Source: Candidatus Methylomirabilota bacterium
GTDB taxonomy: Bacteria > Methylomirabilota > Methylomirabilia > Rokubacteriales > CSP1-6
Direction of reading: 5' to 3'
DNA: 55,228 nucleotides
Assembly: GCA_035259825.1 (NCBI GenBank)
Contig: DATFWA010000296.1
Span: forward strand, 1 to 55,228
The notes below the pieces were generated by a model, which saw nothing but the letters and a program-made list of their open reading frames with translations, was not told the DNA's origin and made no database searches. The position numbers and the translations under genes are program-made. Below are positions 27,675 through 46,916 of the stretch, piece by piece (within the stretch, counting starts at the first letter, position 1; each line of letters opens with the position of its first letter).

Positions 27675-27696
27675 GGCCCGGATCGGAACGAGCGAC

Positions 27697-27727: not shown

Positions 27728-27738
27728 AGGGACGATCG

Positions 27739-28335
27739 GTGAGCGACTACTTCACGGTGTTCGGACTGCCCCGCAAGCTGACGGTGGACGGGGAGGCGCT
27801 GCAGCGGCGCTTCTACGAGCTGTCGCGTCAGCATCACCCCGACTTTCACCAGGGGGCGGCGGCAGAGCAGCAGGCGGAGACGCTCGCCCGGTCGGCCCAG
27901 GTCAATCGTGCGTACCGAGCGCTGCGCGATCCGCTCCCGCGAGTGGAGTACCTGATCGCACTCGAGGAGGGGCGCGAGGTGCGCGAGGGCGCGACCGACA
28001 AGCCTCGGGCGCCCCGGGAGCTGCTCCAGGAAATGCTGGAGGTCCAGGAAGCGCTCGAGGAGGCCAAGGCCGAGGGCATGAGCACCGCGGCGGCCGAGCG
28101 CCTGCGCGAGGAGCGCGCGCGGCTCGAGGAGCGTTACGCGGCCGAGGCCGACGCCATCGTGGGCCGGGCGGGGGAGTGGGATCGGCTGATGGACGCCGGC
28201 GGCGATCGCAAGCCGCTGCTCGAGTGGTTCAAGGAGCGCCTCGCCACCCGGGCGTACCTGCGCACCGTCATCGACGATTTGACCGCCGCGCTGGGAGAGC
28301 GCGAGGAGAGCCATGTCTCGCATCGTCGGCATTGA
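27739..28335 (+). CDS. hscB: Fe-S assembly co-chaperone HscB (J-domain)
   Basis: DYFTVFGLPRKLTVDGEALQRRFYELSRQHHPDF (HPD motif). GTG start. Confidence 0.85.
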   Translation: MSDYFTVFGLPRKLTVDGEALQRRFYELSRQHHPDFHQGAAAEQQAETLARSAQVNRAYRALRDPLPRVEYLIALEEGREVREGATDKPRAPRELLQEMLEVQEALEEAKAEGMSTAAAERLREERARLEERYAAEADAIVGRAGEWDRLMDAGGDRKPLLEWFKERLATRAYLRTVIDDLTAALGEREESHVSHRRH

Positions 28336-30148: not shown

Positions 30149-30471
30149 TGGCGGTGCACAAGGTGACGTTCCTGCCGCTGAACAAGACCGTCGAGGTCGA
30201 CGACAGCAAGTATCCGCTCGCCGACCACGGGCGGCCGGGCTCGCTGCTCGACATCGCCCTGGCCAACGACATCCATCTCGAGCACAACTGCGGCGGCAGC
30301 TGCGCGTGCACGACCTGTCACGTGGTGGTGCGGGAAGGAGAGGAGAACCTCTCGCCCATGGAGCAGGACGAGGAGGATCGTCTCGACACCGCGGAGGGGC
30401 TCACCCTGCACTCGCGGCTGGGCTGTCAGGCGGTGGTCAAAGGCGACGTGGTGGTGGAGATACCCAAGTAA
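30148..30471 (+). CDS. fdx: ISC-type [2Fe-2S] ferredoxin
   Basis: HNCGGSCACTTCHVVV...RLGCQ cysteine pattern. ATGA-type junction with hscA. Confidence 0.92.
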   Translation: MAVHKVTFLPLNKTVEVDDSKYPLADHGRPGSLLDIALANDIHLEHNCGGSCACTTCHVVVREGEENLSPMEQDEEDRLDTAEGLTLHSRLGCQAVVKGDVVVEIPK

Positions 30472-30481
30472 AGGGGCCGAC

Positions 30482-30682
30482 ATGAAGTGGACGGACGCCG
30501 AGGACATCGCGCTGGCTCTGATGGAGGCGCACCCGGACGTGGACCCGCTCACGGTGCGATTCACCGACATGCACAAGTGGGTGGTCGCGCTTCCCGGGTT
30601 CAGCGACGAGGCCAAGAACTCGAACGAAGGGCTCCTCGAGGCCATCCAGATGAAATGGCACGAGGAGTACCAGGACCGCTGA
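30482..30682 (+). CDS. iscX: Fe-S assembly protein IscX (YfhJ)
   Basis: MKWTDAEDIALALMEAHPDVDPLTVRFTDMHKWV..., a 66-aa acidic protein. Confidence 0.88.
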   Translation: MKWTDAEDIALALMEAHPDVDPLTVRFTDMHKWVVALPGFSDEAKNSNEGLLEAIQMKWHEEYQDR

Positions 30683-30683
30683 G

Positions 30684-30914
30684 CTACCAGGTCACCACGT
30701 GATCGTGAGCGAAGATCAAGTCGAGCAGCCCCGCGTAGTCGAGTTCGCCGTCGGCGAGCCGGTGCACCGTCACGTCCGCGGGCAGGGAGGGCGCGGCGGC
30801 GCCGTCGAGCAGGACCACCGTAACACGGGCGTTCGGCTCCCGCCGGTTGGCCTCGATGACCGAGGCGGCGAGCGAGGCCGAGTCGCCCTTGACCAGGTGG
30901 AGGAAGCCGGCCAT
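30684..30914 (-). CDS. TusB/DsrH-like sulfur-relay protein (short, Cys-free)
   Basis: 76 aa, MAGFLHLVKGDSAS...LLDLIFAHDHVVTW (typical C-terminal ...V.tW). Last gene of a three-gene DsrE-family set. Confidence 0.7.
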   Translation of the reverse strand: MAGFLHLVKGDSASLAASVIEANRREPNARVTVVLLDGAAAPSLPADVTVHRLADGELDYAGLLDLIFAHDHVVTW

Positions 30915-31267
30915 CAGAACACGAGGAACCGCGTCGCCCGGGGCACCAGCGCCGCGACCTCCTCCCGGCTCACCGCGACCACCGGGTGGCCGTCCGCGTT
31001 CCAGTCCGGGTCGGTGGGCAGGGCGCCCTCCACGTGGAAGGGCACGCCGAGCTTCTTGAGCGAGGCGCGGAACTTGGCGATGTCGTCGCCGTCGATCAGG
31101 TCGTCGGTGTCCTCGTCGAGGAGGTGGACCGCCGGACCGCTGAGCACTACGCGCACCTCGTTGTCGCCGGCCACGATGCCGAGCGCGATGCGCATGGCCT
31201 CGTTGGCCCGATGCGAGATGCGCGGGTCCTCCGAGATCACGACGAGGGTGGGCTGGCTTCCGCTCAC
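30914..31267 (-). CDS. TusC/DsrF-like sulfur-relay protein
   Basis: 117-aa DsrE-fold pattern LVVISEDP...EAMRIALGIV...VRVVLSGPAVHLL, ending in RFLVF. Confidence 0.7.
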   Translation of the reverse strand: MSGSQPTLVVISEDPRISHRANEAMRIALGIVAGDNEVRVVLSGPAVHLLDEDTDDLIDGDDIAKFRASLKKLGVPFHVEGALPTDPDWNADGHPVVAVSREEVAALVPRATRFLVF

Positions 31268-31280
31268 GGCCGCGCGCGCT

Positions 31281-31616
31281 CTAGTTGAGTGCGATGAAGC
31301 GGTCGGTGCCGTTGATCACGTCGGTGAGCACGACCAGGCCGCAGTTGGTGGCGCGATGCGACAGGGGCAGGCGCCGCTTCTGGCAGCCGTAGGCGCACAC
31401 GAAGAGCCTCAGGCCCCGATCGACCAGGGCCTGCAGGCGGGCGTCCTCCACCGCGGCCACCGCGTCGTCGATCAGGTACAGGTACACGTCCCCGCCCGCG
31501 TCGAGCGCCGCGCGAGACAGTCCGAGCGCGGTGTCGAGATTCGGGTGGTCGGGCGCGGTGGAGACCATCAGGCCCAGCTTCCGACTGGCGAGAGCCATGC
31601 GGGCGAAGCGTAACAT
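31281..31616 (-). CDS. TusD/DsrE-like sulfurtransferase subunit
   Basis: KLGLMVSTAP...DVYLYLIDDAV...LRLFVCAYGCQKRRL, with the conserved Cys in a VCxxxxxxR context, ending in DRFIALN. The start may instead be Met-7 (31598). Confidence 0.75.
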   Translation of the reverse strand: MLRFARMALASRKLGLMVSTAPDHPNLDTALGLSRAALDAGGDVYLYLIDDAVAAVEDARLQALVDRGLRLFVCAYGCQKRRLPLSHRATNCGLVVLTDVINGTDRFIALN

Positions 31617-31634
31617 CGTGAAAGGGGAGCGTCA

Positions 31635-32789
31635 ATGAACCGTCAAGTCTATCTGGATCACAACGCGTCCACGCCGGTGCATCCGGAGGTGGTGGACGCG
31701 ATGCTGCCGTACTTCAGCGAGCGCTTCGGCAATCCGTCGAGCGTGCACGGCTTCGGCCGTGCCGCCCGCGAGGGGCTGGAGACCGCGCGCGAGCAGATCG
31801 CCCACTTCCTGCGGGTCGGCAAGGAAGAGATCGTCTTCACCTCCGGCGGCACCGAGTCCGACAACATGGCGGTCAAGGGCGTGGCGATGGCCCGTCGTTC
31901 CGGGCACATCATCACCAGCAAGATCGAGCACCACGCGGTGCTGCGCGCGGTGCAGAACCTCGAGACGATGGGCTTCGCGGCGACCTACCTGGACGTCGAC
32001 GGCTTCGGGATGGTGGACCCCGACGCCCTGCGCCGGGCCATCCGGCCCGACACCATCCTGATCTCGATCATGCACGCCAACTCCGAGATCGGCACCATCC
32101 AGCCCGCGCGCGAGCTGGGGGCCATCGCGCGAGAGCACAACATCCCGTTCCACATGGACGCGGTGCAGACCTTCGGCAAGGTGCCGATCGACCTCGACGC
32201 CTTCAACATCGACCTGATCTCCTTCTCCGGCCACAAGATCTACGGACCCAAGGGAGTAGCGGGGTTGTACATCAAGAAAGGCACCAAGATGGTATCGGTG
32301 CAGCACGGCGGCGAGCACGAGCGCCGGCGCCGGGCCGGGACCGAGAACGTGGCCAGCATCGTGGGCTTCGGCAAGGCCATCGAGATCCGCGCGCGCGACA
32401 TGGCCGAAGAGGCCCAGCGGCTGACTACCCTTCGGGAGCGCCTCTGGGAGGGCCTGAGCCGCCGGGTGCCCGAGGTGCGGCTGAACGGCCATCCGACCCA
32501 GCGGGTCCCAGGCACCTGCAACGTGTGCTTCCGCCACGTGGAATCCGAATCCATCGTGCTCGGGTTGGATCTGAAGGGCATCGGCGTATCGGCGGGGTCG
32601 GCCTGTACCTCCGGCAACGTGGAGCCGTCGTACGTGCTGGTGGCCATGGGCGTGCCGCTCGACTGGGCGATGGGCGCGGTGCGGCATTCGCTGGGACGAA
32701 GCACGACCGCGGAGGACATCGACTACGTGATCGAGTCGACCGAGCCACTGGTAGCGAAGCTCCGGAGCGCCATGCCGGCGCGGGCCTGA
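31635..32789 (+). CDS. nifS: cysteine desulfurase, NifS-type (class I)
   Basis: MNRQVYLDHNASTPVHPEVVDAM, FTSGGTESDN, SFSGHKIYGPKGVAGLY and SAGSACTS. Confidence 0.93.
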   Translation: MNRQVYLDHNASTPVHPEVVDAMLPYFSERFGNPSSVHGFGRAAREGLETAREQIAHFLRVGKEEIVFTSGGTESDNMAVKGVAMARRSGHIITSKIEHHAVLRAVQNLETMGFAATYLDVDGFGMVDPDALRRAIRPDTILISIMHANSEIGTIQPARELGAIAREHNIPFHMDAVQTFGKVPIDLDAFNIDLISFSGHKIYGPKGVAGLYIKKGTKMVSVQHGGEHERRRRAGTENVASIVGFGKAIEIRARDMAEEAQRLTTLRERLWEGLSRRVPEVRLNGHPTQRVPGTCNVCFRHVESESIVLGLDLKGIGVSAGSACTSGNVEPSYVLVAMGVPLDWAMGAVRHSLGRSTTAEDIDYVIESTEPLVAKLRSAMPARA

Positions 32790-32815
32790 GCCCGGGCGCC
32801 GGGAACGAGCCTCCG

Positions 32816-33208
32816 GTGCGATACAGCCCGACCCTCATCGATCACTTCCGGAACCCGCGGAATGCAGGCATGATGCGGCATCCGGACGGGGTGGGGGAGG
32901 GCGAGTTCAAGGAGTGCATGGATCTGGTCCGCTTCCACCTGCGCGTCATGGCGGGACGGGTGGTGGAGGCCCGGTTCCAGGCCTACGGATGTGGGCCGAC
33001 CATCGCGGCGGCCAGCGCGGCGACCGAGGTGGTGGCCGGCGCGAGCTTGCTCGACCTGCTGGAGCTCTCGGCGGGTGAGGTGGAGGCAGCAGTTGGCGGA
33101 CTGCCCGAGGCGCGCCGTCACGCGGCCGAGGTCGCGACGCTGGGGCTGCGGGCCGCGGCGCGGGACGCGCTGAGCCGGACGGACACAAGGAGCGAGCGAG
33201 ATGCTTGA
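32816..33208 (+). CDS. NifU N-terminal / IscU-like protein, atypical (third Cys ligand replaced by Ala)
   Basis: [28 protein letters not shown] (Cys-x-Asp retained), [11 protein letters not shown] (second Cys retained), and [12 protein letters not shown] where IscU has LPPVKIHCSVLA. GTG start at 32816. Confidence 0.75.
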
Positions 33209-33872
33209 GCAGATGCGGCGGGACGTGAGGACGGTGCTGGAGCGCGATCCGGCCGCACGGTCGGCCCTGGAGGTCGTCTTCTGCACGCCGGGCGTGCACG
33301 CGATCTGGATCCACCGCGTGGCCAACTGGTTCTGGCGCGCGGGCTGGGAGCTCACTGGCCGCTGGCTCTCCCACGTGGGACGATTCCTGACCGGCATCGA
33401 GATCCATCCCGCGGCGGTCCTGGGCCCCGGTCTCTTCATCGATCACGGCATGGGGATCGTCATCGGTGAGACCGCCGAGATCGGGGAGAACGTCAGCATC
33501 CTGCAGGGGGTCACCCTCGGGGGCACCAGCGCCAAGCGCGAGAAGCGCCATCCCACTATCGGCGACAACGTGATGATCGGGGCGGGCGCCGCGGTGCTCG
33601 GCGGCTTCACTATCGGAGCGGGTAGCCGCATCGGTGCCGGCTCGGTGGTGGTGCGCGAGGTGCCGGAGAACTGTGTCGTGGTCGGCGTGCCCGGTCGCAT
33701 CACGTTCCGGAACGGCGAGCGAGTGACCGGCGGTATCGATCTCAACCAGACCGATCTCCCCGACCCGCTGGCCCGCACGCTCGAGCAGATGGCCGACCGG
33801 ATCCATTCGCTGGAGGCGGAGATCGAGCGGCTGAAGAAGGTGGCCGACGCGGCGGACGCACGCACTCACTGA
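33201..33872 (+). CDS. cysE: serine O-acetyltransferase
   Basis: [43 protein letters not shown] and hexapeptide repeats. 8-nt overlap with the upstream gene. Confidence 0.92.
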
Positions 33873-35373: not shown

Positions 35374-36129
35374 ATGGAACGTCCGATCGCCTACGACAAG
35401 CTGGCCCGTGAGGATCGTCTCGTACGCATGCGAGCCCGGGAAGTCGCGCAGCTGAAGGTCGACCAGGGGCTGCCGCCGTTCCCCGACCTGCTCTCGCGCG
35501 ACTCGATCAAGGAACGGGTGCACGGGATCATGGTGGGCGAGCTGCAGGCCATGGAGGGTGCCGGTCGTACCGTCTACGATTTTCCCGACGCGCCGTGGGA
35601 GTTCACCATGGACATGGCGCGCCAGGTGTGGGACGAGTCGCGGCACGTCGAGATCTACGTCCGCCTGCTCGAGCATCTGGAGGGCTACATCGGCGAGTTC
35701 CCGGAGACGACGATCCTGTGGCGCTGCGCCTGCGCGGAAGACGCGGCGGCGCGCGTGGCTGGAGTAAACCGCGGGCTCGAGGGCCTGGCCTGCGACGTGT
35801 TCAACCAGCTGGTGCACATCGCGCGCAAGATGGGCGATCCGATCCTGGAGCGCGCGGTGGATTACGTGCTCGCCGACGAGATCACCCACGTCCGCATGGG
35901 TTCGAAGTGGCTCACCCGGCTCACCGAGGGCGATCCCGAGCGCCGCCGCCGGGCCATCGAGTTTCAGGAGACGATCGACGAGCGCTTCAACCTGGGAGGG
36001 ATCCGCCGCGAGGGCCCGCACGAGGTGGTGCCGATCTCGATCGCCACCGAAGCGCGTCGCGAGGGCGGGTTCACCGACGAGGAGATCGCGCGGCTGATTC
36101 ACACCACCCAGCGGTCGCCCGTCTACTAG
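35374..36129 (+). CDS. ferritin-like di-iron carboxylate protein (DUF455-like)
   Basis: MERPIAY..., with candidate metal ligands VGELQAMEG, WDESRHVEIY (ExxH), GLEGLACDVF and LADEITHVRMG (ExxH). Confidence 0.8.
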   Translation: MERPIAYDKLAREDRLVRMRAREVAQLKVDQGLPPFPDLLSRDSIKERVHGIMVGELQAMEGAGRTVYDFPDAPWEFTMDMARQVWDESRHVEIYVRLLEHLEGYIGEFPETTILWRCACAEDAAARVAGVNRGLEGLACDVFNQLVHIARKMGDPILERAVDYVLADEITHVRMGSKWLTRLTEGDPERRRRAIEFQETIDERFNLGGIRREGPHEVVPISIATEARREGGFTDEEIARLIHTTQRSPVY

Positions 36130-36140
36130 GTCGCGGCGCC

Positions 36141-37118
36141 GTGTCCCACCCGCTGGCCGGCCATCTGGAGGTCGACGATTCGGCGCGGACCGTCCGCCAC
36201 TACCGCTACGCGGTCGAGCGGATGACCCGGATCCTCGGGGGCTGGATCGCGCTGACGCCGGAGATATCCGCCAAGCTGCTCATGGGACGGCATGTCTGGG
36301 ACAACGCCCAGCACGCCGACGCCTGGGGCAAGCGTCTCCCCGAGCTGCGCGCCGCCGCCCAGGTCTCCGAGCCGGCGAGCGAGCGGCTGGTGGCATTCAT
36401 GGACGCGCTGGAAGAAGCCGAGGCGCCCGGGCAGACCATCGAGCGCGTGGTGGCCGTCTACCGGGTTTTGAAGCCGCATCTGCTCGCGACCTACGAGGCA
36501 CACCTCGCCCGGGCCAACGCGGTGTACGAGCCGCCGACCTGCCGCATCCTCGCGCGCTGCATCCAGGACGAGCGACGCCACGTCACCGCGGGCGAGACCA
36601 TCCTCCGTCACCTGCTGCGGTCGCCCGAGCACGAGGAGCGGGCGCGCGCGTGCGAGGCGCGGCTCTGGGCGCTGCTGCAAGGCGCGGGCGGAGTCACCGG
36701 GACGGGGCCGGTCACGCGCGCGTCCGGCGATACCGCACCGTCGCCACTCAGCGACGACGCGTCCGAGTTCGTCCGGCTCGAGCGCTCGACCACCGAGTGG
36801 CGGATCGCTCCGGAGCTGGCCGCGGCCCTCGTGGCGTTCGGTGACGCGCTGGTCGCCGGCGATGAGGCCGCCGTGCGGCAATGGCTCACCCCCGAAGCGG
36901 TGCCGGACCCCGAGGTGACGGCGCGGCTCGGCGAGGCGCGGGGCGGCCGGCATCGTGTCGTGGCGTTCGCCCGCGTCGGCGCCCACCGACTGGCGAAGCT
37001 CCGCGTGGACGGCGCCGGCGCGCCGCTTACCCTGCTGATGCGCTGGGTGCCCGGAAGCGCCGGCTGGCGCATCGCCGCGCTCGAGACCGTCTCCGCCTCC
37101 GCCGCCCAGCCCGCCTGA
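36141..37118 (+). CDS. hypothetical protein: degenerate ferritin-like N-terminal domain plus NTF2/SnoaL-like C-terminal domain
   Basis: The GTG start lies 11 nt after the upstream stop. It contains YRYAVERMTRILGGW, HVWDNAQHADAW and CIQDERRHVTAGE (one clear ExxH). The C-terminal roughly 110 aa reads ...ALVAGDEAAVRQWLTPEAV...WRIAALETV. Confidence 0.6.
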   Translation: MSHPLAGHLEVDDSARTVRHYRYAVERMTRILGGWIALTPEISAKLLMGRHVWDNAQHADAWGKRLPELRAAAQVSEPASERLVAFMDALEEAEAPGQTIERVVAVYRVLKPHLLATYEAHLARANAVYEPPTCRILARCIQDERRHVTAGETILRHLLRSPEHEERARACEARLWALLQGAGGVTGTGPVTRASGDTAPSPLSDDASEFVRLERSTTEWRIAPELAAALVAFGDALVAGDEAAVRQWLTPEAVPDPEVTARLGEARGGRHRVVAFARVGAHRLAKLRVDGAGAPLTLLMRWVPGSAGWRIAALETVSASAAQPA

Positions 37119-37123
37119 GTGAC

Positions 37124-38464
37124 GTGCTCACACGCGTCCTGATCGCCAACCGGGGGGAGATCGCCCGCCGCGTCATCCGCGGCTGCCGCGCGCTGGGCGT
37201 CCACTCGATCGCGGTCTACTCCGAGGCCGACGCGAGCTGGCCGCACGTGGCCGATGCCGACGAGGCGGTGGCGATCGGGCCGGCGCCCGCGCGGGAGAGC
37301 TATCTCGACATCGAGCGGCTGCTCGACGCGGCCCGTCGCACGAAGGCGGAGGCCGTCCACCCGGGCTACGGGTTCCTCTCGGAGAACTGGCGGTTCGCTC
37401 AGGCCTGCGAGACCGCCGGGCTCGTCTTCATCGGCCCGTCGTGGAAAGTGATCCAGCAGATGGGCGACAAGGTCGCGGCGCGCACCCTGATGGCGGCGGC
37501 GGGCGTGCCGGTGGTGCCGGGCAGCGCCGGGCCGGTGGACTCCGTGGATGCGGCTCGCGAGGTCGCCGCCCGCGTCGGGTATCCGGTCATGGTCAAGGCG
37601 GCCGCGGGCGGAGGCGGCATCGGTATGATGCGCGTGCCGGACGAGGCCGGGCTGGCCGCCGCATTCATCGCGGCGCAGCGGAGGGCGCAATCCGCCTTCG
37701 GCTCGGGTGCACTGTTCGTGGAGCGCTACCTGGAGAGCCCGCGGCACGTCGAGGTCCAGGTCTTCGGCGACACGAGCGGTCGGGTCGTCCACCTGCACGA
37801 GCGCGAGTGCTCGATCCAGCGTCGGCATCAGAAGCTCGTCGAGGAGAGCCCGGCTCCCAACCTGTCACCCGCGCTCAAGGTCCGGCTGACCGAAGCGGCG
37901 GTGGCGGGTGCGCGCGCGGTCGGCTACGTGAACGCGGGGACGATGGAGTTCATCGTTCACGGAGAGGAGTTCTACTTTCTCGAGATGAACACGCGCCTGC
38001 AAGTCGAGCACCCGGTGACCGAGGAGGTGACGGGTCTCGATCTGGTGCAGGCGCAATTGCGCGTGGCGTCCGGAGAGCCGCTGCCGTGGACGCAGGAGCA
38101 GGTGCCGCAGCGGGGATCGAGCATCGAGTGCCGCGTCTATGCCGAGGATCCGGCCCGCAATTTCGTGCCGTCGCCTGGACGCATCTCCCGGCTGGCGCTG
38201 CCCGCCGGACCGGGCGTGCGCGTCGAATGCGGGGTGGCCGAGGGCGTGGAGGTCTCGGTGCACTACGATCCGCTCCTGGCCAAGCTCATCGCCACCGGCG
38301 CCACTCGGGACGAGGCGATCGAGCGGATGCGCGGGGCGCTCGCCGCGTTCGTGGTCGAGGGCGTGAAGACGGTGATTCCCTTCCAGCAGCGGGTGATGGA
38401 CAGCCCCGCGTTCCACGCGGGCGCCGTGCACACGCAGATGGTGGAGCAGGGCGCCTTCCGCTGA
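37124..38464 (+). CDS. accC: biotin carboxylase subunit of an acyl-CoA carboxylase (no fused BCCP)
   Basis: VLTRVLIANRGEIARRVIRGCRALG, GYPVMVKAAAGGGGIGM, EMNTRLQVEHPVTE. 446 aa, ending before any biotinyl domain. Confidence 0.93.
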   Translation: MLTRVLIANRGEIARRVIRGCRALGVHSIAVYSEADASWPHVADADEAVAIGPAPARESYLDIERLLDAARRTKAEAVHPGYGFLSENWRFAQACETAGLVFIGPSWKVIQQMGDKVAARTLMAAAGVPVVPGSAGPVDSVDAAREVAARVGYPVMVKAAAGGGGIGMMRVPDEAGLAAAFIAAQRRAQSAFGSGALFVERYLESPRHVEVQVFGDTSGRVVHLHERECSIQRRHQKLVEESPAPNLSPALKVRLTEAAVAGARAVGYVNAGTMEFIVHGEEFYFLEMNTRLQVEHPVTEEVTGLDLVQAQLRVASGEPLPWTQEQVPQRGSSIECRVYAEDPARNFVPSPGRISRLALPAGPGVRVECGVAEGVEVSVHYDPLLAKLIATGATRDEAIERMRGALAAFVVEGVKTVIPFQQRVMDSPAFHAGAVHTQMVEQGAFR

Positions 38465-38491
38465 GGCGTCTCGCTCCGGGCGGCAGGCGCG

Positions 38492-40126
38492 ATGGAGACG
38501 AACCTCACCGACGCGCGGACGCGAGCGATGACCGCGGCGGGACTCTGGCGCAACGAGAGCCTGCTGGCCTATCTCGACCGCTGGGCCCGCGAGCGGCCGG
38601 GCCAGACCGCGCTGGTCGACGGTCGCGGTCGCCTGTCCTGGGGCGAGCTCGCCCGGGCGGCGGATCGCGTAGCCCACGGGCTGCGGTCCCACGGCGTTGA
38701 GGCGGGCGGCGTGATCTCCTGCCAGATGCCGAACTGGAGCGAGGCGATCGTGGTGTTCCTGGCCGCGCTGCGGCTGGGCGCGGTGATCAATCCGATCCCG
38801 CCGGCCTACCGGGCCAGCGAGTTGCGCTTCATGCTGAGGCTGCTCGAGTCGCAGGTGGCGGTGGTGCCCGCCACGTTCCGCGGCTTCGACCACGCGGGCA
38901 TGCTGGCCGGCCTGCGCCCGGAATTGCCGCGCCTCGAGCACGTGTTCGTGGCTCGCGGCGAAGGGCCGGCCGGCACCAAGCCGCTGCGCGCCCTCACCGA
39001 CGAGCCGTGGGAGACGCGCGCGGGCCGGCGTGAGTTCCCGGGCACGCGTCCCAACGCGGTTCACGAGGTGGTGTTCACGTCGGGCACCACCGGCGAGCCC
39101 AAGGGCGTCATGCACACCCAGAACACCACGCTATCCACGCTCCATCTGGCGATCGAACGGCTCGAGATGAGCGAGCGCGAGGTGCTGCTGATGGCCTCCA
39201 CCGTCGGCCATCAGACCGGCTTTCTCTTCGGTCACTGCCTGAACCTGCTGCTGGGCGCCACTGCCGTCTGGATGGACGTCTGGAACGTGGAAGAAGCGGC
39301 CCGCCTGATCGAGTCCGAGGGCGTGACGTTCTCGATGGGCGCCACCCCATTCCTGCGCGATCTGACCGATCTGAAGACCGCCCGCGACCGCTCCGCGCTG
39401 CGCCTGTTCATCTCGGCGGGGGCGCCGATCCCTCGCGCGCTCGTGCGGGACGCGCGAGAGCGCCTCGGCTGCGTCATCTCGGCGGGGTGGGGGATGACCG
39501 AGAACGGGATGGTCACCTGCAACGGCCTGCGCGACGACGAGGAGAAGATCGTCGGCAGCGACGGCTCTCCGCTGGCCGGGATGGAGCTGCGGATCGTCGA
39601 CGACGACGGCGCCCCCGTCCCGCCCGGCGTGGAGGGCGACCTGCTGGCGCGCGGCGCCGCGCTGTTCGTCGGCTACTTCCAGCGGCCGCATTTCACCACC
39701 GAGGCCCACACCGCCGACGGGTGGTTCCGCACCGGGGACCGTGGCACCCTCGATCACGACGGCTACCTGGCGATCACCGGTCGGTCGAAGGACCTCATCA
39801 TCCGGGGGGGCGAGAACATCCCGGTCGTGGAGGTCGAGAACCTGCTCTACACTCATCCGAAGGTCGCCGGCGTCGCGATCGTGGCCACGCCCGATCCCCG
39901 GCTGGGAGAGCGGGCGTGCGCGGTGGTGATCCCGCGCGAGGGACAGACGATCACGTTGGGCGAGATCGTGAGCTTCCTGGAGCGTCACCAGCTGGCCCGC
40001 CAGAAATTTCCGGAGCGCCTCGAGCTGGTCTCCGAGTTCCCCACCACGCCGAGCGGCAAGATCCAGAAGTACAAGCTGCGCGACCTTGTGGCCGAGCGGG
40101 CCCGGCGCGCGGAGAGGCCGACATGA
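38492..40126 (+). CDS. AMP-dependent acyl-CoA ligase (AliA / cyclohexanecarboxylate-CoA ligase-like)
   Basis: FTSGTTGEPKGVMH, GWGMTENG, WFRTGD, GRSKDLIIRGGENI and PSGKIQK. The N-terminal MPNWSEA...NPIPPAYRASELRFML...VPATFRGFDH resembles AliA-type ligases by eye. Confidence 0.9.
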   Translation: METNLTDARTRAMTAAGLWRNESLLAYLDRWARERPGQTALVDGRGRLSWGELARAADRVAHGLRSHGVEAGGVISCQMPNWSEAIVVFLAALRLGAVINPIPPAYRASELRFMLRLLESQVAVVPATFRGFDHAGMLAGLRPELPRLEHVFVARGEGPAGTKPLRALTDEPWETRAGRREFPGTRPNAVHEVVFTSGTTGEPKGVMHTQNTTLSTLHLAIERLEMSEREVLLMASTVGHQTGFLFGHCLNLLLGATAVWMDVWNVEEAARLIESEGVTFSMGATPFLRDLTDLKTARDRSALRLFISAGAPIPRALVRDARERLGCVISAGWGMTENGMVTCNGLRDDEEKIVGSDGSPLAGMELRIVDDDGAPVPPGVEGDLLARGAALFVGYFQRPHFTTEAHTADGWFRTGDRGTLDHDGYLAITGRSKDLIIRGGENIPVVEVENLLYTHPKVAGVAIVATPDPRLGERACAVVIPREGQTITLGEIVSFLERHQLARQKFPERLELVSEFPTTPSGKIQKYKLRDLVAERARRAERPT

Positions 40127-40920
40127 ATCTCAATCTCGCGGGCAAGAGCGTGATCGTCACCGGCGGGGGCTCCAACATCGGGCGGGCGATCAGCCTCGCG
40201 TTCGCGCGTGAGGGCGTTCACCTCACCGTCGCGGAGATCGACGAGGGGCAGGGCACGAAGGTCGCGGCCGAGGCCCAGACGCTCGGCGCCGCCTCCGCCA
40301 CCCTCGTGCCGACCGACGTGACCCGCTGGGAGTCGGTGCAGGCGATGGTGCGCGAGGTCGAGGGCCGCGCCGGCCGCGTGGACGTCCTCGTGAACAACGT
40401 CGGCTGGACGTACGACCGCCTCTTCGTCGAGAAGGAGCGGACGGAGTGGGAGCGCGAGATCCAGCTCAACCTGTGGGGCATGATCAACTGCACGCGCGCG
40501 GTGCTGGACGGCATGATCGCGCGTAAGGCGGGCGCGATCGTGAGCATGGGCTCGGACGCCGGGCGCATGGGCGAATTCCGCGAGGGTGTCTATGGGGCCT
40601 GCAAGGCCGGCGTCATCGCGCTCAGCAAGAGTCTGGCCCGCGAGGTGGGCCGCCACGGGATTCGCCTCAACGTGGTGTGCCCGGGCATGACGATTCCCGG
40701 ATCCGAGGAAGACTTCGGCGACCGCAGCATGTGGGCCGCCGAGGCCAACCGCGCCTGGAGCGCGCCGGACATGCAGGCGCGGATCGCCAAGGCGTATCCG
40801 CTCCGGCGCGTCGGGCGACCCGAGGACGTGGCCCCCGCCGTGCTGTTCCTGGCCTCCGACGCCGCCGGCTTCATCACCGGGCAGACCCTGTCGGTGAGCG
40901 GCGGCTACACCATGATGTGA
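40123..40920 (+). CDS. SDR-family oxidoreductase
   Basis: KSVIVTGGGSNIGRAISLAFAREG, NNVG and YGACKAGVIALSKSLA. ATGA overlap with the ligase. Confidence 0.9.
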   Translation: MNLNLAGKSVIVTGGGSNIGRAISLAFAREGVHLTVAEIDEGQGTKVAAEAQTLGAASATLVPTDVTRWESVQAMVREVEGRAGRVDVLVNNVGWTYDRLFVEKERTEWEREIQLNLWGMINCTRAVLDGMIARKAGAIVSMGSDAGRMGEFREGVYGACKAGVIALSKSLAREVGRHGIRLNVVCPGMTIPGSEEDFGDRSMWAAEANRAWSAPDMQARIAKAYPLRRVGRPEDVAPAVLFLASDAAGFITGQTLSVSGGYTMM

Positions 40921-40931
40921 GCGGGCGCGCA

Positions 40932-42083
40932 ATGGATCTGCAGCTCTCGCCTGAGCAGGACGCCCTCAGCCGGACCCTCCGCCAGTTCGCCCGGAAGGAG
41001 CTGGCGCCGCACTCTGCCGCGTGGGACCGCAGCGGGCGCTTTCCGTCGGAGGCGTGGCGCCGGATGGGCGAGCTGGGCCTCCTGGGTCTTCGGATCCCCG
41101 CCGCCTACGGGGGTCAGGAGTCCGACTTCCTGACCTTCGGTATCGCGATGGAGGAGATCGGGCGCGGCGACTTCAGCTGCACCTACGGAATCCAGCTCGC
41201 GGGGCTGGCCGGCGAGATCCTGGGCCGCAGCGCGCCCGAGGCGCTCAAGGCGCGATGGCTGCCTCCCACCGCGGCCGGCGAGGTGGTGGTGGCCCTGGCC
41301 CTTACCGAGCCGGGCGCCGGCTCCGACGCGGCCAACCTCGCATGCCGCGCCGAGCGCGACGGCGACGGCTACGTGCTCACCGGGGAGAAATCCGGGATCA
41401 GCCTGGGCATGGCCGCGCACGCCGCCATCGTGTTCGCGCGCACGGATCCGGGCGCGCGGGCGCGCGGGATCACCGCGTTCCTGGTGCCGCTCGATCTGCC
41501 CGGGGTTTCGCGGAGCGCGCTGCGCGACATGGGTACGCGTGCGATCGCGCGCGCGGTGCTGACGTTCGACCACGTGCGGATCCCCCGCTCGCATCGTCTA
41601 GGCGAGGAGGGCACCGGCTTCTACCAGGTCATGCAGGGCTTCGACTACAACCGCATCGGAATCGCGCTGGCCTGTTTGGGCGTCGCGCAGCAGTCGGTCG
41701 AGGAGACCATGACCTACGTACGCGAGCGGAAGGCGTTCGGCCAGCCGCTGGCGCGCTTCCAGGGTGTGTCGTTCGCCATCGCGGAGGCGGCGACACACGT
41801 GGAGGCCTGCCGCTGGCTCTGCTATCGGGCGCTCTGGCTCGCCGATCAGGGGAAGCCCCACACCAAGGAATCGGCCATGGCCAAGTGGTGGGGCCCACGC
41901 CTGTCGGTGGAGACGATCCACCAGTGCCTGCTGCTCCACGGCCACTACGGCTACACCGACGAGCTGCCCTTCGAGCAACGCATGCGGGACGTGATCGGCC
42001 TCGAGATCGGCGACGGCGCCTCCGAGGTCATGAAGATGGTGGTGGCCCGCGAGCTGATGGGACGCGAGAGCCTGCCGTACTAG
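40932..42083 (+). CDS. acyl-CoA dehydrogenase
   Basis: LALTEPGAGSDAANL, QVMQGFDYNRIGIA, and C-terminal IGDGASEVMKMVVAREL. Confidence 0.93.
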   Translation: MDLQLSPEQDALSRTLRQFARKELAPHSAAWDRSGRFPSEAWRRMGELGLLGLRIPAAYGGQESDFLTFGIAMEEIGRGDFSCTYGIQLAGLAGEILGRSAPEALKARWLPPTAAGEVVVALALTEPGAGSDAANLACRAERDGDGYVLTGEKSGISLGMAAHAAIVFARTDPGARARGITAFLVPLDLPGVSRSALRDMGTRAIARAVLTFDHVRIPRSHRLGEEGTGFYQVMQGFDYNRIGIALACLGVAQQSVEETMTYVRERKAFGQPLARFQGVSFAIAEAATHVEACRWLCYRALWLADQGKPHTKESAMAKWWGPRLSVETIHQCLLLHGHYGYTDELPFEQRMRDVIGLEIGDGASEVMKMVVARELMGRESLPY

Positions 42084-42188
42084 CGCGGACCGGCCGCGGC
42101 CCGTCACGACTTGCCCGGATGTGAGAGAATGCGGCCGCCTCGAGAGGCGCCGCGCGAAATCCCTCCGCGGAACGACAAGGAGCGCTCA

Positions 42189-42404
42189 ATGTCCGAGGAC
42201 GTCAAGGCCCACATCACCGGTGTGGTCTTCCAGATCACCAGCAAGCCGGGGGACGCGGTGGCCGCCGGAGATCCGGTCATCGTGCTCGAATCCATGAAGA
42301 TGGAGATTCCGGTCGAAGCGCCCCGCGCCGGCAAAGTGCGCGAGATCCGGGTCAGCGAGGGGCAGACGGTGCAGGAGGGAGACACCGTCGCGGTGATCGA
42401 CTAG
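42189..42404 (+). CDS. stand-alone biotin carboxyl carrier protein (biotinyl domain only, 71 aa)
   Basis: GDPVIVLESMKMEIPVEAPRAGKV, with the biotinyl-Lys in an (A/S)MKM context. AAGGAG Shine-Dalgarno. Confidence 0.85.
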   Translation: MSEDVKAHITGVVFQITSKPGDAVAAGDPVIVLESMKMEIPVEAPRAGKVREIRVSEGQTVQEGDTVAVID

Positions 42405-42427
42405 CCCCGGTTGCGGAGGAGACACCG

Positions 42428-42931
42428 ATGGCCGTCGCTCTGATCCGCGAGCTCTACGACTACCACCACTGGGCGAACCGTCGCCTCTTCGACCTCGCGG
42501 CCGGGCTGGGCGACGGGGCCACCCGCGACATGGGCGCGCACTGGAGCTTTCCGACGCTCAAGGGCATGTTCGCCCACGTCTACGGCGCCGACCACTCCTG
42601 GCTGAAGCGTTGGCAGGGCTCGTCGCCGAGCAGGCTGATGGGCGACGGCGACTTCGCCTCCATGGCCGACCTCCGGCAGAAGTGGGACGATCTCGAGACC
42701 GAGCAGCGCGCCTTCGTAGGCGCGGTGAGCGAAGCCGATCTCTCCCGGGTCGTGACCTACCGGAACACCCAGGGCAAGGAGTTCCGCGTAGCGCTGGGCC
42801 CGCTGCTGCAGCACGTGGTCAACCACGCGACCCATCACCGCAGCGAGGCCGCCACCATGATCACGCTGATCAGCGGCTCGCCGCCCGACACTGGGATCAA
42901 CACCTACCGTGTCGCGGTGGTCAAGGGCTGA
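42428..42931 (+). CDS. DinB-family (DinB/YfiT-like four-helix bundle, metal-binding) protein
   Basis: YDYHHWANRRLFD...HVYGADHSWL...LLQHVVNHATHHRSEA (His triad pattern). Confidence 0.8.
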   Translation: MAVALIRELYDYHHWANRRLFDLAAGLGDGATRDMGAHWSFPTLKGMFAHVYGADHSWLKRWQGSSPSRLMGDGDFASMADLRQKWDDLETEQRAFVGAVSEADLSRVVTYRNTQGKEFRVALGPLLQHVVNHATHHRSEAATMITLISGSPPDTGINTYRVAVVKG

Positions 42932-42941
42932 TCCGGTGGGG

Positions 42942-44561
42942 ATGAAGGACCTCGTCGACGACCTGCGCGCGCGCCGCCAGCGCGCGCTGGCGATGGGCGG
43001 CGCCGACGCGGTGGCCAAGCAGCACGCGGAGGGCAAGCTCACCGTCCGCGAGCGGCTCGATCGCCTGTTCGACGCCGATTCGTTCCAGGAGATCGGCGTC
43101 CTCGCGACCCACGCCAACGTCGTCCCCGCGATGAAGGGGCGGGAGACGCCCGCGGACGGCGTGATCACCGGATTCGGCCAGATCGCCGGGCGGCCCGCCG
43201 CGGTGATCGCCTACGACTTCACGGTGATGGCCGGCTCGATGGGACGCACCGCCGAGGTGAAGTGCAACCGAGCGCGCGAGATCGCGCTCGGCAAGCGCAT
43301 GCCGATGATCTGGCTGATCGACTCGGCGGGCGCCCGCATCCAGGAGGCGATCGGGTCGACCTTCGCCGGGTCGGGCTTGCTGTTCCGCGAGGAGTCGATC
43401 ATGTCCGGGGTGGTGCCGATGGTCGCCGCCATGATGGGGCCGGGCGCCGCGGGCACCGCGTACATCCCGGCCCTGGCCGACTTCGTGCCGATGGTAAAGG
43501 GCACGAGTCACATGGCTCTCGGCGGGCCGCCCCTCGTGAAGGCGGTCGTCGGCGAGGACATCAGCGCCGAGGAGCTGAGCGGCTCCAAGGTCCACACCGA
43601 GATCTCGGGCGTGGCGGACCTCGAGGTTCCCGACGATACCGCGTGCATCGCGGCGGTCAAGGAGTACCTGTCGTACTTCCCCGGGTCGAATCTCGAGCAG
43701 CCGCCGCTCGTGCCTTGCGACGATCCGGCTGACCGGATGGACGAGGCGCTGCTGAGCGTCGTGCCGGACTCGGCGCGGCGGGCCTACGACATGAAGAAAG
43801 TGATTGGGCATTTGGCGGACCACGGACGCTTCTTCGAGATCAAGCCCGGCTGGGCTCGCAACCTGATCACCGGCTTCGCCCGGATGGGCGGCCGCCCGGT
43901 GGGGATCGTGGCCAACCAGCCGATGGTGCTGGGCGGCGCCCTCGACGTGGACTCGGCCGACAAAGCAGCGCGCTTCATAATGCTGTGCGACGCCTTCCAC
44001 ATCCCGCTGCTGTTCCTGCAGGACGTTCCGGGCTTCCTGGTGGGCTCCAAGGTGGAGCGCCAGGGGATCATCCGTCACGGCGCCAAGATGTTGTACGCGG
44101 TGAGCGAGGCCACCGTGCCGAAGGTCACGGTGGTGGTGCGCAAGGCCTACGGAGCCGGCTACTTCGTCATGTGCGGGCGTGCCTACGAGCCGGACCTGAT
44201 CGTGGCCTGGCCCACCGCGGAGATCTCGGTAATGGGCCCGGAGGGCGGGACCAACATCATCTTCCGGAAGGAGATCGCGGCCGCCGCCGATCCCGCGGAG
44301 GAGCGCGCGCGCCGCGTGGAGGAGTTCCGGCGGCTCATCAACCCCTACATCGCGGCCGGCGGAGCGCTGATCGACGACGTCATCGATCCTCGCGAGACCC
44401 GACCGGTGGTGATCCGGGCCCTGGAGATGGCCCGAACCAAGAAGGTCGAGCGTCCCTGGAAGAAGCACGGAGTGATGCCGGTCCGACCAAGGAGGACCAC
44501 GCCATGCACATCGGTCTCTGCATGTTCGCTACCGACTACGCCATCCGCATCGACGAGCTAG
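42942..44561 (+). CDS. acyl-CoA carboxylase carboxyltransferase subunit (PccB/MccB/AtuC-like)
   Basis: KLTVRERLDRLFDADSFQEIG, DFTVMAGSMG, PMIWLIDSAGARIQE, PLLFLQDVPGFLVG and VVVRKAYGAGYF. The C-terminal 25 aa beyond the usual KKHG..P. end overlap the next gene. Confidence 0.92.
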   Translation: MKDLVDDLRARRQRALAMGGADAVAKQHAEGKLTVRERLDRLFDADSFQEIGVLATHANVVPAMKGRETPADGVITGFGQIAGRPAAVIAYDFTVMAGSMGRTAEVKCNRAREIALGKRMPMIWLIDSAGARIQEAIGSTFAGSGLLFREESIMSGVVPMVAAMMGPGAAGTAYIPALADFVPMVKGTSHMALGGPPLVKAVVGEDISAEELSGSKVHTEISGVADLEVPDDTACIAAVKEYLSYFPGSNLEQPPLVPCDDPADRMDEALLSVVPDSARRAYDMKKVIGHLADHGRFFEIKPGWARNLITGFARMGGRPVGIVANQPMVLGGALDVDSADKAARFIMLCDAFHIPLLFLQDVPGFLVGSKVERQGIIRHGAKMLYAVSEATVPKVTVVVRKAYGAGYFVMCGRAYEPDLIVAWPTAEISVMGPEGGTNIIFRKEIAAAADPAEERARRVEEFRRLINPYIAAGGALIDDVIDPRETRPVVIRALEMARTKKVERPWKKHGVMPVRPRRTTPCTSVSACSLPTTPSASTS

Positions 44562-45340
44562 CCCGCGCCGCCGAGGAGCGCGGCTTCGAGTCGCTGTTCG
44601 TGCCGGAGCACACCCACATCCCGACCAGCCGCCGTACGCCCTTTCCCGGCGGCGGTCAGCTGCCGAAAGAATACTCGCACACCTTCGATCCCTTCGTGTC
44701 GCTGATGGCCGCGGCCGCCGCGACCAAGCGCCTGAAGGTCGGCACCGGCATCTGCCTGATCATCGAGCGCGACACCATCACCACCGCCAAGGAGGTGGCG
44801 AGCCTCGACCTGCTCTCGGGCGGCCGCTTCCTGTTCGGGATCGGAGCGGGCTGGAACGCGGATGAAATGGAGAATCACGGAACGGAGTTCAAGAGCCGGT
44901 ACAAGCGGATGCGCGAGCAGGTGCTGGCCATGAAGGAGATCTGGACCAAGGACGAGGCGCGGTACCACGGCGAGCACGTGAAGTTCGATCCGATCTGGTC
45001 GTGGCCCAAGCCGGCTCAGAAGCCGCATCCGCCCGTGCTGCTGGGGGGCGAGAGCGGTCACACCCTGCAGCGGGTGGTGGACTTCTGCGAGGGCTGGTTT
45101 CCGCGAGGCCGGGCCGGCGACGTGATCCTGAGTGGGCTCAAGGACCTGCAGGCGCGCGCCGCCAGGGCGGGGCGGGACATGAAGACGATCTCGGTCTCGG
45201 TGTTCGGGGCCAAGCCGGACGAGGCGACGCTCGAGAGCTACACGGGGGCCGGAATCGCGCGCTCGATCCTGCGTCTGCCCTCGGAGGGTCGAGAGGTGAT
45301 CCTGCCGCTGCTCGATCAATACGCCAAGCTGATCCGCTGA
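44504..45340 (+). CDS. LLM-class (luciferase-like) oxidoreductase, probably F420-dependent
   Basis: MHIGLCMFATDYAIRIDELARAAEERGFESLFVPEHTHIP...GGRFLFGIGAGWN. AAGGAGG Shine-Dalgarno. Confidence 0.85.
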   Translation: MHIGLCMFATDYAIRIDELARAAEERGFESLFVPEHTHIPTSRRTPFPGGGQLPKEYSHTFDPFVSLMAAAAATKRLKVGTGICLIIERDTITTAKEVASLDLLSGGRFLFGIGAGWNADEMENHGTEFKSRYKRMREQVLAMKEIWTKDEARYHGEHVKFDPIWSWPKPAQKPHPPVLLGGESGHTLQRVVDFCEGWFPRGRAGDVILSGLKDLQARAARAGRDMKTISVSVFGAKPDEATLESYTGAGIARSILRLPSEGREVILPLLDQYAKLIR

Positions 45341-45358
45341 CCAGCGGCCGGAGGGAAG

Positions 45359-45389
45359 CTCGGGAGGGGGCGTCAGCCCCCCTCCCGGG
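45359..45389. terminator. bidirectional GC-rich hairpin between the convergent LLM gene and rpoD
   Basis: CGGGAGGGGG-(7-nt loop)-CCCCCTCCCG, a 10-bp perfect stem, filling the 49-nt convergent gap. Confidence 0.7.
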
Positions 45390-46916
45390 TCAATTCTCGA
45401 CGAAGGCGCGGAGGGCGCGGCCGCGCAGCGGGTGACGCAGTTTGCGCAGCGCCTTGGTCTCGATCTGGCGGATGCGCTCGCGGGTGACCGAGAAGCGCCG
45501 GCCCACCTCTTCCAGGGTGTGCTCGCCCGCCTCGCCGATACCGAAGCGCAATCTCAGAATCTCCTTCTCTTTGGGCGACAGCGTCCCGAGCGCCCGCTCC
45601 ACCTGATTCGTCAGATCCTGGCTGATCAGGTTGTCGTTGGGAGACTCCGCCCCCTTGTCCTCCAGGAAGTCGCCCAGCTCGGAATCGTCACCGATCGGGG
45701 TCTCCAGCGACAGCGGCTTGCGCGACGACTCCAGGATGAGCCGCACCTTGCGCGCGGGCACGCCGGTGCGCTGGGCCAGCTCCTCGGGCGTGGGCTCCCG
45801 CCCCATCTCGTTGACCAGCGACCGGTTCACTCGAGAGATGCGGTTGAGCGTCTCCACCATGTGCACCGGGATCCGGATGGTGCGCGAATGGTCCGCGATC
45901 GCGCGCGTGATCGCCTGACGGATCCACCACGTCGCGTAGGTCGAGAACTTGAACCCGCGGCGGTACTGGAAGCGGTCCACCGCCTTCATCAGGCCGATGT
46001 TGCCCTCCTGCACGAGGTCCAGCAGCGACAGCTCGCTGCCCAGGTAGCGCTTGGCCACCGACACCACCAGCCGAAGGTTGGCCTCCATCAGCTCCTTCTT
46101 GGCCTGGCGGACGACGCGGTCGTGCTCCTCGATCTCGCCCAGCGAGACGAGCAGCGCCTTGCGGCTCAGCCCCGCGGCCTGCTCCCGCTGCCGTAGCTCG
46201 GAGCGCGACTTCCCGCCGCTCATGCTCTTGGCGAGGCGCCGGATGTCGACGACCAGCTGGTCGACCAGCGCCGGCTTCAGCGGCAGCTTCTCCAGCACGG
46301 TCTGGATCGACTCGCGGTTCTGCGCGATCCACTTGTTGTAGTTGGCGCGGGTGGTCTTGCTGCGCCGCTTGTCGCGGAGGGCCTGGTGCAGGCGGTCGAT
46401 CTCGCGCTCCAGCCGGCGGATGCGCGCGAACGCGGCCAGGCTCGAGCGTACCTCGCTCGGGGTCGGCTCGCCCCCCTCGGGAAGCAGGATCACGTCGTCG
46501 AGCGGAACTTCCTCGCGCCGGACGCGATCGACCAGCGCCAGCAGCTTCGCGGTGGCGAAAGGCACCCGACCCAGCGCGCGCCGCAGCGCGATCTGGCCCA
46601 CTTCGATCCGACGCCCGAGCGCTACTTCCTCCTCGGCCCTCAGCAGCGAGACTTTGCCGATCTCCTTCAGATACAGGCGTACCGGGTCTTCGGCCGGCGA
46701 GGCGGACGGACGCAGCGCCGCCTCGGAGAGGGCGGGGGTCTCGTCCATCTCGACCGCGGAGTCGACGACACGGTCCAATTCGTCATCGACCGGCGGGGCG
46801 GGCTGAACGCTCGTCTTCTGAACCTGGCGTCCCCGCCGCTTGGCCTCACCCTGAGCCGCCTTGTACGGGCTGCTCTCTGTCGCCACCACCACGGTGTCGG
46901 TCTCTCTGAAAGTCAT
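45390..46916 (-). CDS. rpoD: primary RNA polymerase sigma factor (sigma-70 / RpoD)
   Basis: [56 protein letters not shown] and [19 protein letters not shown]. The start was chosen at MTFRETD with a GAGAGG Shine-Dalgarno. Confidence 0.93.

Follow-up and report, generated by a model that had tools for sequence, protein, structure and literature searches.

Three-subunit acetyl/propionyl-CoA carboxylases, such as AccC/AccB/PccB of Metallosphaera sedula, are built from a separate biotin carboxylase (BC), a biotin carboxyl carrier protein (BCCP) and a single carboxyltransferase (CT) of ~515 aa. In the actinobacterial enzymes Streptomyces coelicolor AccA2-PccB-PccE and Mycobacterium tuberculosis AccA3-AccD5-AccE5, BC, BT and BCCP are fused in the alpha subunit, the complex includes an epsilon subunit, and one BC/BCCP may serve several CTs. 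Genes for a biotin carboxylase, a ligase, an acyl-CoA dehydrogenase (ACAD) and a short-chain dehydrogenase/reductase (SDR) occur together in the Pseudomonas atu system (AtuC/AtuF, AtuD, AtuE, AtuG, AtuH), and a ligase, ACAD and SDR also belong to the Rhodopseudomonas palustris ali/bad system (AliA, AliB, BadH, BadK, BadI). Here, we describe a string of ten genes with similar contents in a 55,228-nt stretch of DNA (hereafter the window; GenBank assembly GCA_035259825.1, contig DATFWA010000296.1, positions 1 to 55,228 of the forward strand) from a Candidatus Methylomirabilota bacterium. An earlier sequence-only reading had taken the string for a single undescribed carboxylating pathway. Comparison with ~100 loci of relatives makes it likely that the region is a composite of four evolutionary modules with separate histories, assembled around a PccB-type carboxylase. 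What is new is best described as a PccB-type three-subunit carboxylase operon with an autonomous DUF455 module ahead of it, a cassette inside it (in one clade) and an LLM-class oxidoreductase gene behind it. The identities of the genes, the boundaries of the modules, the order of events and the purifying selection on the genes are established below; the cassette and the carboxylase may in addition be coupled, for example if the carboxylase acts on propionyl-CoA that the pathway of the cassette releases.

Genes were called by frame analysis of G+C content at third codon positions (GC3) and inspection of start codons (the window has ~69% GC), and domains were assigned with Pfam and NCBIfam. Ten co-directional genes lie on the + strand at 35374-45340, in the order given by the sequence-only reading, and every domain that it named was recovered. 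The features of the string are as follows.

35374..36129, + strand: fer1, a ferritin-like protein of the DUF455 family (PF04305, 97.1 bits against a cut-off of 34.3)
36141..37118, + strand: fer2, a second ferritin-like protein and distant paralogue of fer1 (24% identity), with no Pfam family above threshold
37124..38464, + strand: BC of AccC type, 446 aa, with Biotin_carb_N, CPSase_L_D2 and Biotin_carb_C and no BT or BCCP domain (best model NF006367)
38492..40126, + strand: AliA-like acyl/aryl-CoA AMP-ligase, first gene of the cassette (best match TIGR03208)
40123..40920, + strand: BadH-like SDR of the cassette (best match TIGR03206; adh_short_C2), overlapping the ligase stop by 4 nt
40921..40931, no strand: junction between the SDR and ACAD genes, 11 nt here and the site of a 258-aa crotonase in relatives
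40932..42083, + strand: AliB-like ACAD of the cassette (best match TIGR03207)
42189..42404, + strand: stand-alone BCCP of 71 aa with the motif ESMKME (NF004547, 87.9 bits against a cut-off of 75)
42428..42931, + strand: DinB-family four-helix-bundle protein (PF05163, 8e-15)
42942..44561 (native end ~44486), + strand: CT, beta subunit of PccB/12S/MmdA type (PF01039, 570 bits)
44504..45340, + strand: LLM-class oxidoreductase, predicted to be F420-dependent (TIGR03619 family, 261.5 bits against a cut-off of 166.9)
45358..45390, no strand: GC-rich hairpin in the interval where the LLM and sigma-70 genes converge, read directly from the sequence and folded

For synteny, one genome per GTDB species was retained, giving 56 loci (these and further loci are cited below by L numbers), all from Rokubacteria when soil records under other names are counted as binning errors. 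Twelve window proteins (the ten of the string, the upstream DNA polymerase IV (polIV) and the downstream sigma factor) were searched against these loci by tblastn, and the search was repeated with the relatives' crotonase and an extra SDR added to the queries, in the first 60 loci and then in 80 further metagenome loci. The arrangement found across the phylum is polIV, then fer1-fer2-BC-BCCP-DinB-CT, then sigma. BC and BCCP abut in most Rokubacteria, with the BCCP start 1-2 nt from the BC stop where the cassette is absent. The ligase, SDR and ACAD genes, together with a + strand LLM gene beside CT, are restricted to one clade, which is monophyletic and nested in a neighbor-joining tree of fer2, and ~40 independent metagenome loci of at least 6 kb show the same architectures. 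The sequence-only reading was right that the BC lacks a BCCP domain and that the BCCP lies ~3.7 kb away; this separation exists because a cassette was inserted into an older operon, and the split alpha subunit is not that of a purpose-built three-piece enzyme. The LLM gene has a separate history as well. Its orthologues in other clades (76-83% identity) have the reverse orientation and are separated from CT by 1-1.5 kb that holds other genes, so it appears to be a neighbor brought beside CT by local rearrangement. The exact ten-gene order does recur in the closest relatives (L057, L060 and L065), as a check of its synteny had asked.

The cassette is the part of the string that resembles the ali/bad system. 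AliA, BadH and AliB are the best models for its ligase (590.6 bits), SDR (229.2 bits) and ACAD (444.3 bits), and to this extent the proposed likeness holds, but none of the three reaches its equivalog cut-off (792.3, 431.2 and 575.35 bits, respectively) and, unlike the ali/bad genes, they are embedded in a carboxylase operon and accompanied by no ring-opening hydrolase. The nearest solved relatives of the ligase are the aryl-acid adenylating salicylate- and dihydroxybenzoate-AMP ligases (~250 bits) and those of the ACAD are short-chain ACADs (267 bits). The substrate can be guessed from these similarities to be a small, possibly ring-bearing acid. The ligase would activate such an acid to its CoA ester, which the ACAD, a crotonase and the SDR would desaturate, hydrate and oxidise to a 3-oxoacyl-CoA. 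The dN/dS values of the ligase, SDR and ACAD (0.04-0.25) rule out a decaying cassette. A reading modelled on the 3-hydroxypropionate cycle (ligase, dehydratase, acryloyl-CoA reductase and acetyl- or propionyl-CoA carboxylase) was considered and not adopted, as the ACAD fits AliB (444 bits) over acryloyl-CoA reductase (321 bits) and the history of the modules is wrong for it. One sub-clade carries an extra FabG-like SDR gene between the ligase and BadH-like SDR genes (L010 13990-14754, also L004, L012, L013 and L068), so the content of the cassette varies within the clade.

No crotonase-family gene was found in the window, either as a PF00378 match among the ten genes or by tblastn with a relative's crotonase against the whole stretch. 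The window therefore has no counterpart of the BadK hydratase, the BadI ring-opening hydrolase or an AtuE-type hydratase, and the sequence-only reading was correct on this point. It had gone on to suggest that a branched, isoprenoid or alicyclic acid is handled by a single Atu/Ali-like pathway to which all ten genes are dedicated, with redox chemistry by the di-iron, DinB and LLM proteins in place of hydration and with the three-piece carboxylase working on an intermediate. Such a pathway would account for ten co-directional, tightly spaced genes, for AliA, BadH and AliB being the best models of the ligase, SDR and ACAD, and for the crotonase-less order in L057, L060 and L065, where it is under purifying selection. 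Most cassette-bearing loci, however, have a 258-aa crotonase between the SDR and ACAD (L001 14782-15558, PF00378 at 1e-60), whose best matches are generic EchA19-like enoyl-CoA hydratases, below their cut-offs, with BadK and BadI outside the 25 best matches. The crotonase is absent from the window, L057, L060 and L065, and also from the group of L015, L079 and L085, and is present in the sister lineage L001; the SDR-ACAD junction measures 11-19 nt in the window, L015, L057, L060 and L065. A direct repeat of 11 nt, CCCGCCATGGA, stands on either side of the L001 crotonase gene, which suggests a simple route of deletion. The crotonase thus arrived with the cassette and was cleanly lost later in the sub-lineage of the window, where hydration would presumably be supplied from elsewhere in the genome. 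Taken as a feature of the pathway by the sequence-only reading, the missing hydratase is a secondary loss. The di-iron pair and DinB are found phylum-wide and are older than the cassette, and the crotonase came with the cassette, so the replacement of a hydratase by oxygenase chemistry finds no support. The single dedicated pathway is further disfavored by the occurrence of the di-iron pair elsewhere without the cassette, by the opposite strand of the LLM gene in other clades, by the type of the CT and by the loss of CT from many cassette-bearing loci (both described below), and we consider it highly improbable.

The CT was placed by ranking its bit scores against all PDB chains, in place of a full CT phylogeny. 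Its Carboxyl_trans match is of the two-domain form and spans residues 26-512. The best scores were with the beta chain of propionyl-CoA carboxylase (PCC) from Thermotoga maritima (1vrg, 512 bits), an acetyl-CoA carboxylase (ACC) beta chain (7w5u, 504 bits), the 12S transcarboxylase subunit of Propionibacterium shermanii (1on3, 501 bits), the Sulfolobus tokodaii homologue 1x0u (498 bits) and S. coelicolor PccB (1xnv series, ~482 bits); the PDB table itself gives molecule names and not organisms. Scores were far lower with AccD1 (318 bits), the beta subunits of methylcrotonyl-CoA carboxylase (MCC, 301-304 bits) and geranyl-CoA carboxylase (GCC, 5ikl, 254 bits), and long-chain acyl-CoA carboxylase (LCC, 243 bits). 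The CT is therefore predicted to be of PccB/12S/MmdA type, that of an ordinary propionyl/acetyl-CoA carboxylase, and not of the AtuC/MccB type that the Atu comparison implied (480-512 bits with PCC, ACC and 12S beta subunits against 254 with GCC and 301-304 with MCC beta). Ranking with PCC-type enzymes is also the outcome that the sequence-only reading had itself named as speaking against its proposal. The gene categories shared with atu (ligase, ACAD, SDR and biotin carboxylase) are accompanied by a further difference: the alpha subunit is unfused here (a BC of 446 aa and a separate BCCP), as opposed to the BC-BT-BCCP fusion of AtuF.

The remaining subunits agree with a short-chain acyl-CoA carboxylase, in that the PCC/ACC/12S-like CT is accompanied by an ATP-grasp BC and a BCCP with an MKM motif. 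The BC passes the AccC subfamily model (NF006367, 616 bits against a cut-off of 597) and the BCCP passes the PRK05889 carrier-protein model (NF004547); its ESMKME motif is kept in every locus examined, including those without BC or CT. BC would carboxylate biotin on the 71-aa BCCP with ATP and bicarbonate, and the PccB-type CT would then use this carboxybiotin to carboxylate a short acyl-CoA, probably one the size of acetyl-, propionyl- or butyryl-CoA. Separate BC and BCCP, a single CT of the same size class with best scores of 498-512 bits, and the MKM biotinylation motif are shared with three-subunit acetyl/propionyl-CoA carboxylases, as is a hydrophobic residue in the CT motif AYGAGYFVM, where Phe stands at the position of S. 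coelicolor PccB D422 (in the numbering of the PccB literature) and the reference enzymes have I, L, V or D. Unlike those carboxylases, the system has a BCCP of only 71 aa (TB7.3/PRK05889-like), a DinB gene between BCCP and CT, a BC and BCCP that in this clade are split by a four-gene cassette (three-gene here), and a CT that carries AGYF in place of G(G/A/S)Y plus I, L or V and is often lost from the locus. The actinobacterial enzymes have homologous CTs (~420-482 bits) and differ by their fused alpha subunit, their epsilon subunit and the Asp of PccB at the position of the window's Phe.

The BC, BCCP and CT could also be a housekeeping ACC for fatty-acid synthesis, with the other genes of the string as unrelated neighbors. 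The locus keeps its position between polIV and rpoD throughout the phylum, the CT is conserved (73-92% identity across the phylum, dN/dS 0.04-0.10), and the BC exceeds the AccC subfamily cut-off, all of which this explanation would predict. It fits poorly with the absence of CT from roughly one third of complete loci, including many that bear the cassette and in which DinB is followed directly by LLM, and with a BC of which L025, L036 and L095 keep only recognisable traces and L038 nothing. These losses imply that the local carboxylase is dispensable or redundant in such relatives, for which a housekeeping ACC would need paralogues elsewhere, and argue against its being the sole ACC. A cassette that was inserted inside the operon and retained, and a DinB gene invariably wedged between BCCP and CT, are likewise unexpected, and we regard a housekeeping ACC as unlikely. 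The CT-less loci are consistent with one BC/BCCP serving CTs encoded elsewhere, as may be the case in the actinobacterial systems. In the spacer before an intact BCCP, BC relics with the EMNTRLQVEH motif and the BC C-terminus can be seen at L025 10940-11085 and L095 5630-5774.

The position of the DinB-family gene is always the one between BCCP and CT, and the gene is retained at loci where CT or BC has been lost. H50, H129, H133 and H136 are invariant in the product, a predicted metalloprotein. A search of PDB sequences with DinB found no usable homologue. Tandem DinB-family paralogues, in 2-3 copies between BCCP and CT, occur at L022 9019-10098 and L042 7634-9237. The fixed position of DinB, its multiplication in some genomes and the fact that BCCP and DinB are the most persistently kept pair, even without BC or CT, could mean that the phylum-wide core is one system in which DinB, and possibly the di-iron pair, is accessory to the carboxylase, for instance as an adaptor or epsilon-like subunit that replaces the BT domain; a BC without a BT domain and a BCCP of only 71 aa would suit such a role. 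DinB is, however, the fastest-evolving core gene (dN/dS ~0.2-0.26, identity as low as 48%), which is not expected of a subunit in tight co-evolution, and a metagenome scan seeded with the DinB alignment gave only close relatives (at least 60% identity), with no DinB-BCCP-CT linkage evident outside Rokubacteria. As the unrelated polIV and sigma flanks are about as syntenic and the di-iron pair clearly stands on its own in two other phyla, we hold this explanation to be very unlikely. An extended form, in which the core is a true unit with DinB as a new accessory or adaptor of the BT-less carboxylase, the di-iron pair acts on the same acyl-CoA pool and, in the clade of the window, an Ali-like cassette was recruited so that a small alicyclic or aryl acid could be carboxylated by a new route, seems to us distinctly doubtful.

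The autonomy of the di-iron pair is seen outside Rokubacteria. An exhaustive profile search returned only ~1,300 clusters (formed at 50% identity) of fer1 relatives, the nearest beyond Rokubacteria being in Binataceae (54-60% identity) and Acidimicrobiales (~50%). Binataceae loci have the order TetR, a homologue of the fer2 N-domain (52%), two NTF2-like genes (~32% identity to the fer2 C-terminal domain) and 1-2 DUF455 genes (54-59%), and an Acidimicrobiales locus the order 4Fe-4S ferredoxin, DUF455 (50%), a homologue of the fer2 N-domain (38%) and a 100-aa protein. Within 10 kb of the di-iron pair in these loci, no BC, BCCP, CT or DinB gene was found, and beta-oxidation genes are likewise missing there. 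We conclude that the pair is an independent unit, because it lives without a carboxylase in both groups. In Binataceae (L062 7006-10765 and L061 8199-10768), the two parts of fer2 are encoded apart, the helical one as a protein of 206 aa and the NTF2-like one as proteins of 128-132 aa. At the Acidimicrobiales locus L063 9672-11930, the ferredoxin gene and the beginning of the DUF455 gene overlap, and the presence of a ferredoxin hints at the electron donor of the di-iron module.

The fer1 ligands E56, E88/H91, E136 and E169/H172 make up a complete di-iron set (E / ExxH / E / ExxH) and are invariant across three phyla, and the protein is strongly conserved within Rokubacteria (mostly 81-98% identity, 66% in one frameshift-prone long-read bin; dN/dS 0.02-0.05). 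In its AlphaFold2 (AF2) model (mean pLDDT 72), confidence is fair in the helical core but not at the termini, and the best fold matches (TM ~0.5) are aldehyde-deformylating oxygenase, R2lox and PaaA/C. The fer2 protein combines a degenerate DUF455-like helical domain (~1-190; weak match at E = 0.006-0.016, below the Pfam threshold), in which N55 and K111 replace fer1 E88 and E136, with a C-terminal domain (~205-318) that matches NTF2-like folds in Foldseek; its homologues are 325-326 aa long. Both AF2 models are moderate (pLDDT 70 and 72) and support the NTF2-like assignment and a generic ferritin-like oxygenase fold only. PDB sequence searches with fer1 and fer2 gave no usable homologue, and a literature search on DUF455 gave incidental or prefix matches only, with no functional study and no characterised member. 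Among known systems, PaaA/PaaC of phenylacetyl-CoA epoxidase are similar in that a ferritin-like protein with a full di-iron site is paired with a degenerate paralogue encoded next to it, with fold similarity at TM ~0.5; they differ in showing no significant sequence similarity, in having PaaB/PaaD/PaaE partners that are lacking here, and in the NTF2-like domain on the fer2 partner. The likeness of fer1 to cyanobacterial aldehyde-deformylating oxygenase and to R2lox (TM ~0.5) is at fold level only. Together, fer1 and fer2 are probably an O2-dependent oxidase or oxygenase, and fer1 is likely the catalytic subunit, and fer2 the non-catalytic partner, of an autonomous two-protein module.

Four modules can thus be proposed: the di-iron fer1 with its degenerate partner fer2 as an independent O2-dependent unit; the BC-BCCP-CT carboxylase with its DinB gene; a beta-oxidation-type cassette of AliA-like ligase, BadH-like SDR, crotonase and AliB-like ACAD that would have entered between BC and BCCP in one nested clade; and a putative F420-type LLM oxidoreductase that would have moved beside CT by local rearrangement. 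Several observations weigh against so loose an association. Gaps of at most 105 nt and a 4-nt overlap permit a single transcript, and a new coupling could have evolved after the modules were joined. The crotonase-less ten-gene order persists under purifying selection in several diverged contigs and is no decaying accident. The fer1-fer2-BC-BCCP-DinB-CT adjacency extends across a whole order or phylum and is possibly functional, although the polIV and sigma flanks are about as conserved. The CT carries the unusual AGYF, where references have G(G/A/S)Y and then I, L, V or D. In addition, the substrate assignments are family similarities only, with the ligase, SDR and ACAD below equivalog cut-offs; the tree is a neighbor-joining tree of one protein; and the survey of CT and ACC genes covers this locus, not whole genomes.

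Intergenic distances in the string range from -58 to 105 nt. The widest, between ACAD and the start of the 71-aa BCCP, exceeds the maximum of 85 nt given by the sequence-only reading. The 58-nt overlap of CT and LLM is due to a single substitution that turned the stop codon of CT from TGA into CGA. The TGA is kept in L057, L060, L065 and L001, where CT ends in ...KKHGVMPV, 17 nt before the LLM start, with a native length of 514 aa in relatives; its loss (window 44484-44561) adds a tail of 25 aa, and reflects a genuine read-through variant or else an error in base calling. The strong GC hairpin that the sequence-only reading placed at the end of the string is real (45358-45390, stem of ~11-13 bp, -33.2 kcal/mol); it has no T-tract, its z-score is only -2.4 against shuffles of the same GC-rich sequence, and the terminator scan made no call there. 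Scans for consensus promoters and terminators made no call inside the string above the shuffle expectation, and an Rfam scan of the window found zero RNA families. Co-transcription of the ten genes may be inferred from their spacing and the absence of internal promoter or terminator calls. All ten genes are under purifying selection (dN/dS 0.02-0.31 against five relatives).

The string sits in a housekeeping neighborhood of a Rokubacteria (Methylomirabilota) chromosome. Homologues of fer2 are abundant in soil metagenomes, whose sources label them Rokubacteria or Methylomirabilota. Eight soil metagenome-assembled genomes of the SMAG set (L001, L006, L011, L012, L013, L027, L040 and L054) are labelled Nitrosotalea, Nitrosocosmicus, Acidoferrum, Dormiibacterota, Limnocylindria, Deferrimicrobiaceae or Verrucomicrobiia; on a Rokubacteria-specific locus, these labels are probably binning or labelling errors. 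Immediately upstream of the string is polIV, and downstream, convergent on the opposite strand, is an rpoD-like sigma-70 gene, both about as conserved in position as the core of the string. Directly 5' of polIV, a stretch that is syntenic in relatives (L060) holds a complete ISC iron-sulfur operon (IscR, IscS, IscU, IscA, HscB, HscA, Fdx, IscX), followed by three DsrE-like genes on the minus strand and then a second cysteine desulfurase and a hexapeptide acyltransferase (25185-33872). Further genes in the window include 2-oxoacid dehydrogenase genes, malic enzyme, an aminotransferase and a probable argC; the names of the 2-oxoacid dehydrogenase, argC and individual ISC and DsrE genes come from translations and the annotation of a relative, not from family models. 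A gene for Pup (68 aa, 9899-10105, + strand, PF05639 at 2e-20, C-terminus GGQ) implies a pupylation system in this Rokubacteria genome. At 14157-21986, a MoxR AAA+ ATPase gene, a gene for a 496-aa protein, one for a DUF58 protein and one for a 1463-aa BatA/VWA/GATase1-like protein form a set that resembles an aerotolerance (Bat)-type operon. Literature searches on Rokubacteria and carboxylase returned no description of this locus.

An apparently exotic ten-gene pathway thus becomes an explainable history, in which a conserved carboxylase operon stands beside an autonomous di-iron module and received a beta-oxidation cassette whose hydratase gene was later lost, and tight co-directional packing in a high-GC genome alone does not define a pathway. 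The findings have no direct bearing on any long-standing open question. The module of a DUF455 protein with a degenerate partner and NTF2-like domain, conserved in at least three phyla, and the DinB-family gene that keeps its place between BCCP and CT throughout an uncultured lineage abundant in soil are both reasonable targets for biochemistry.

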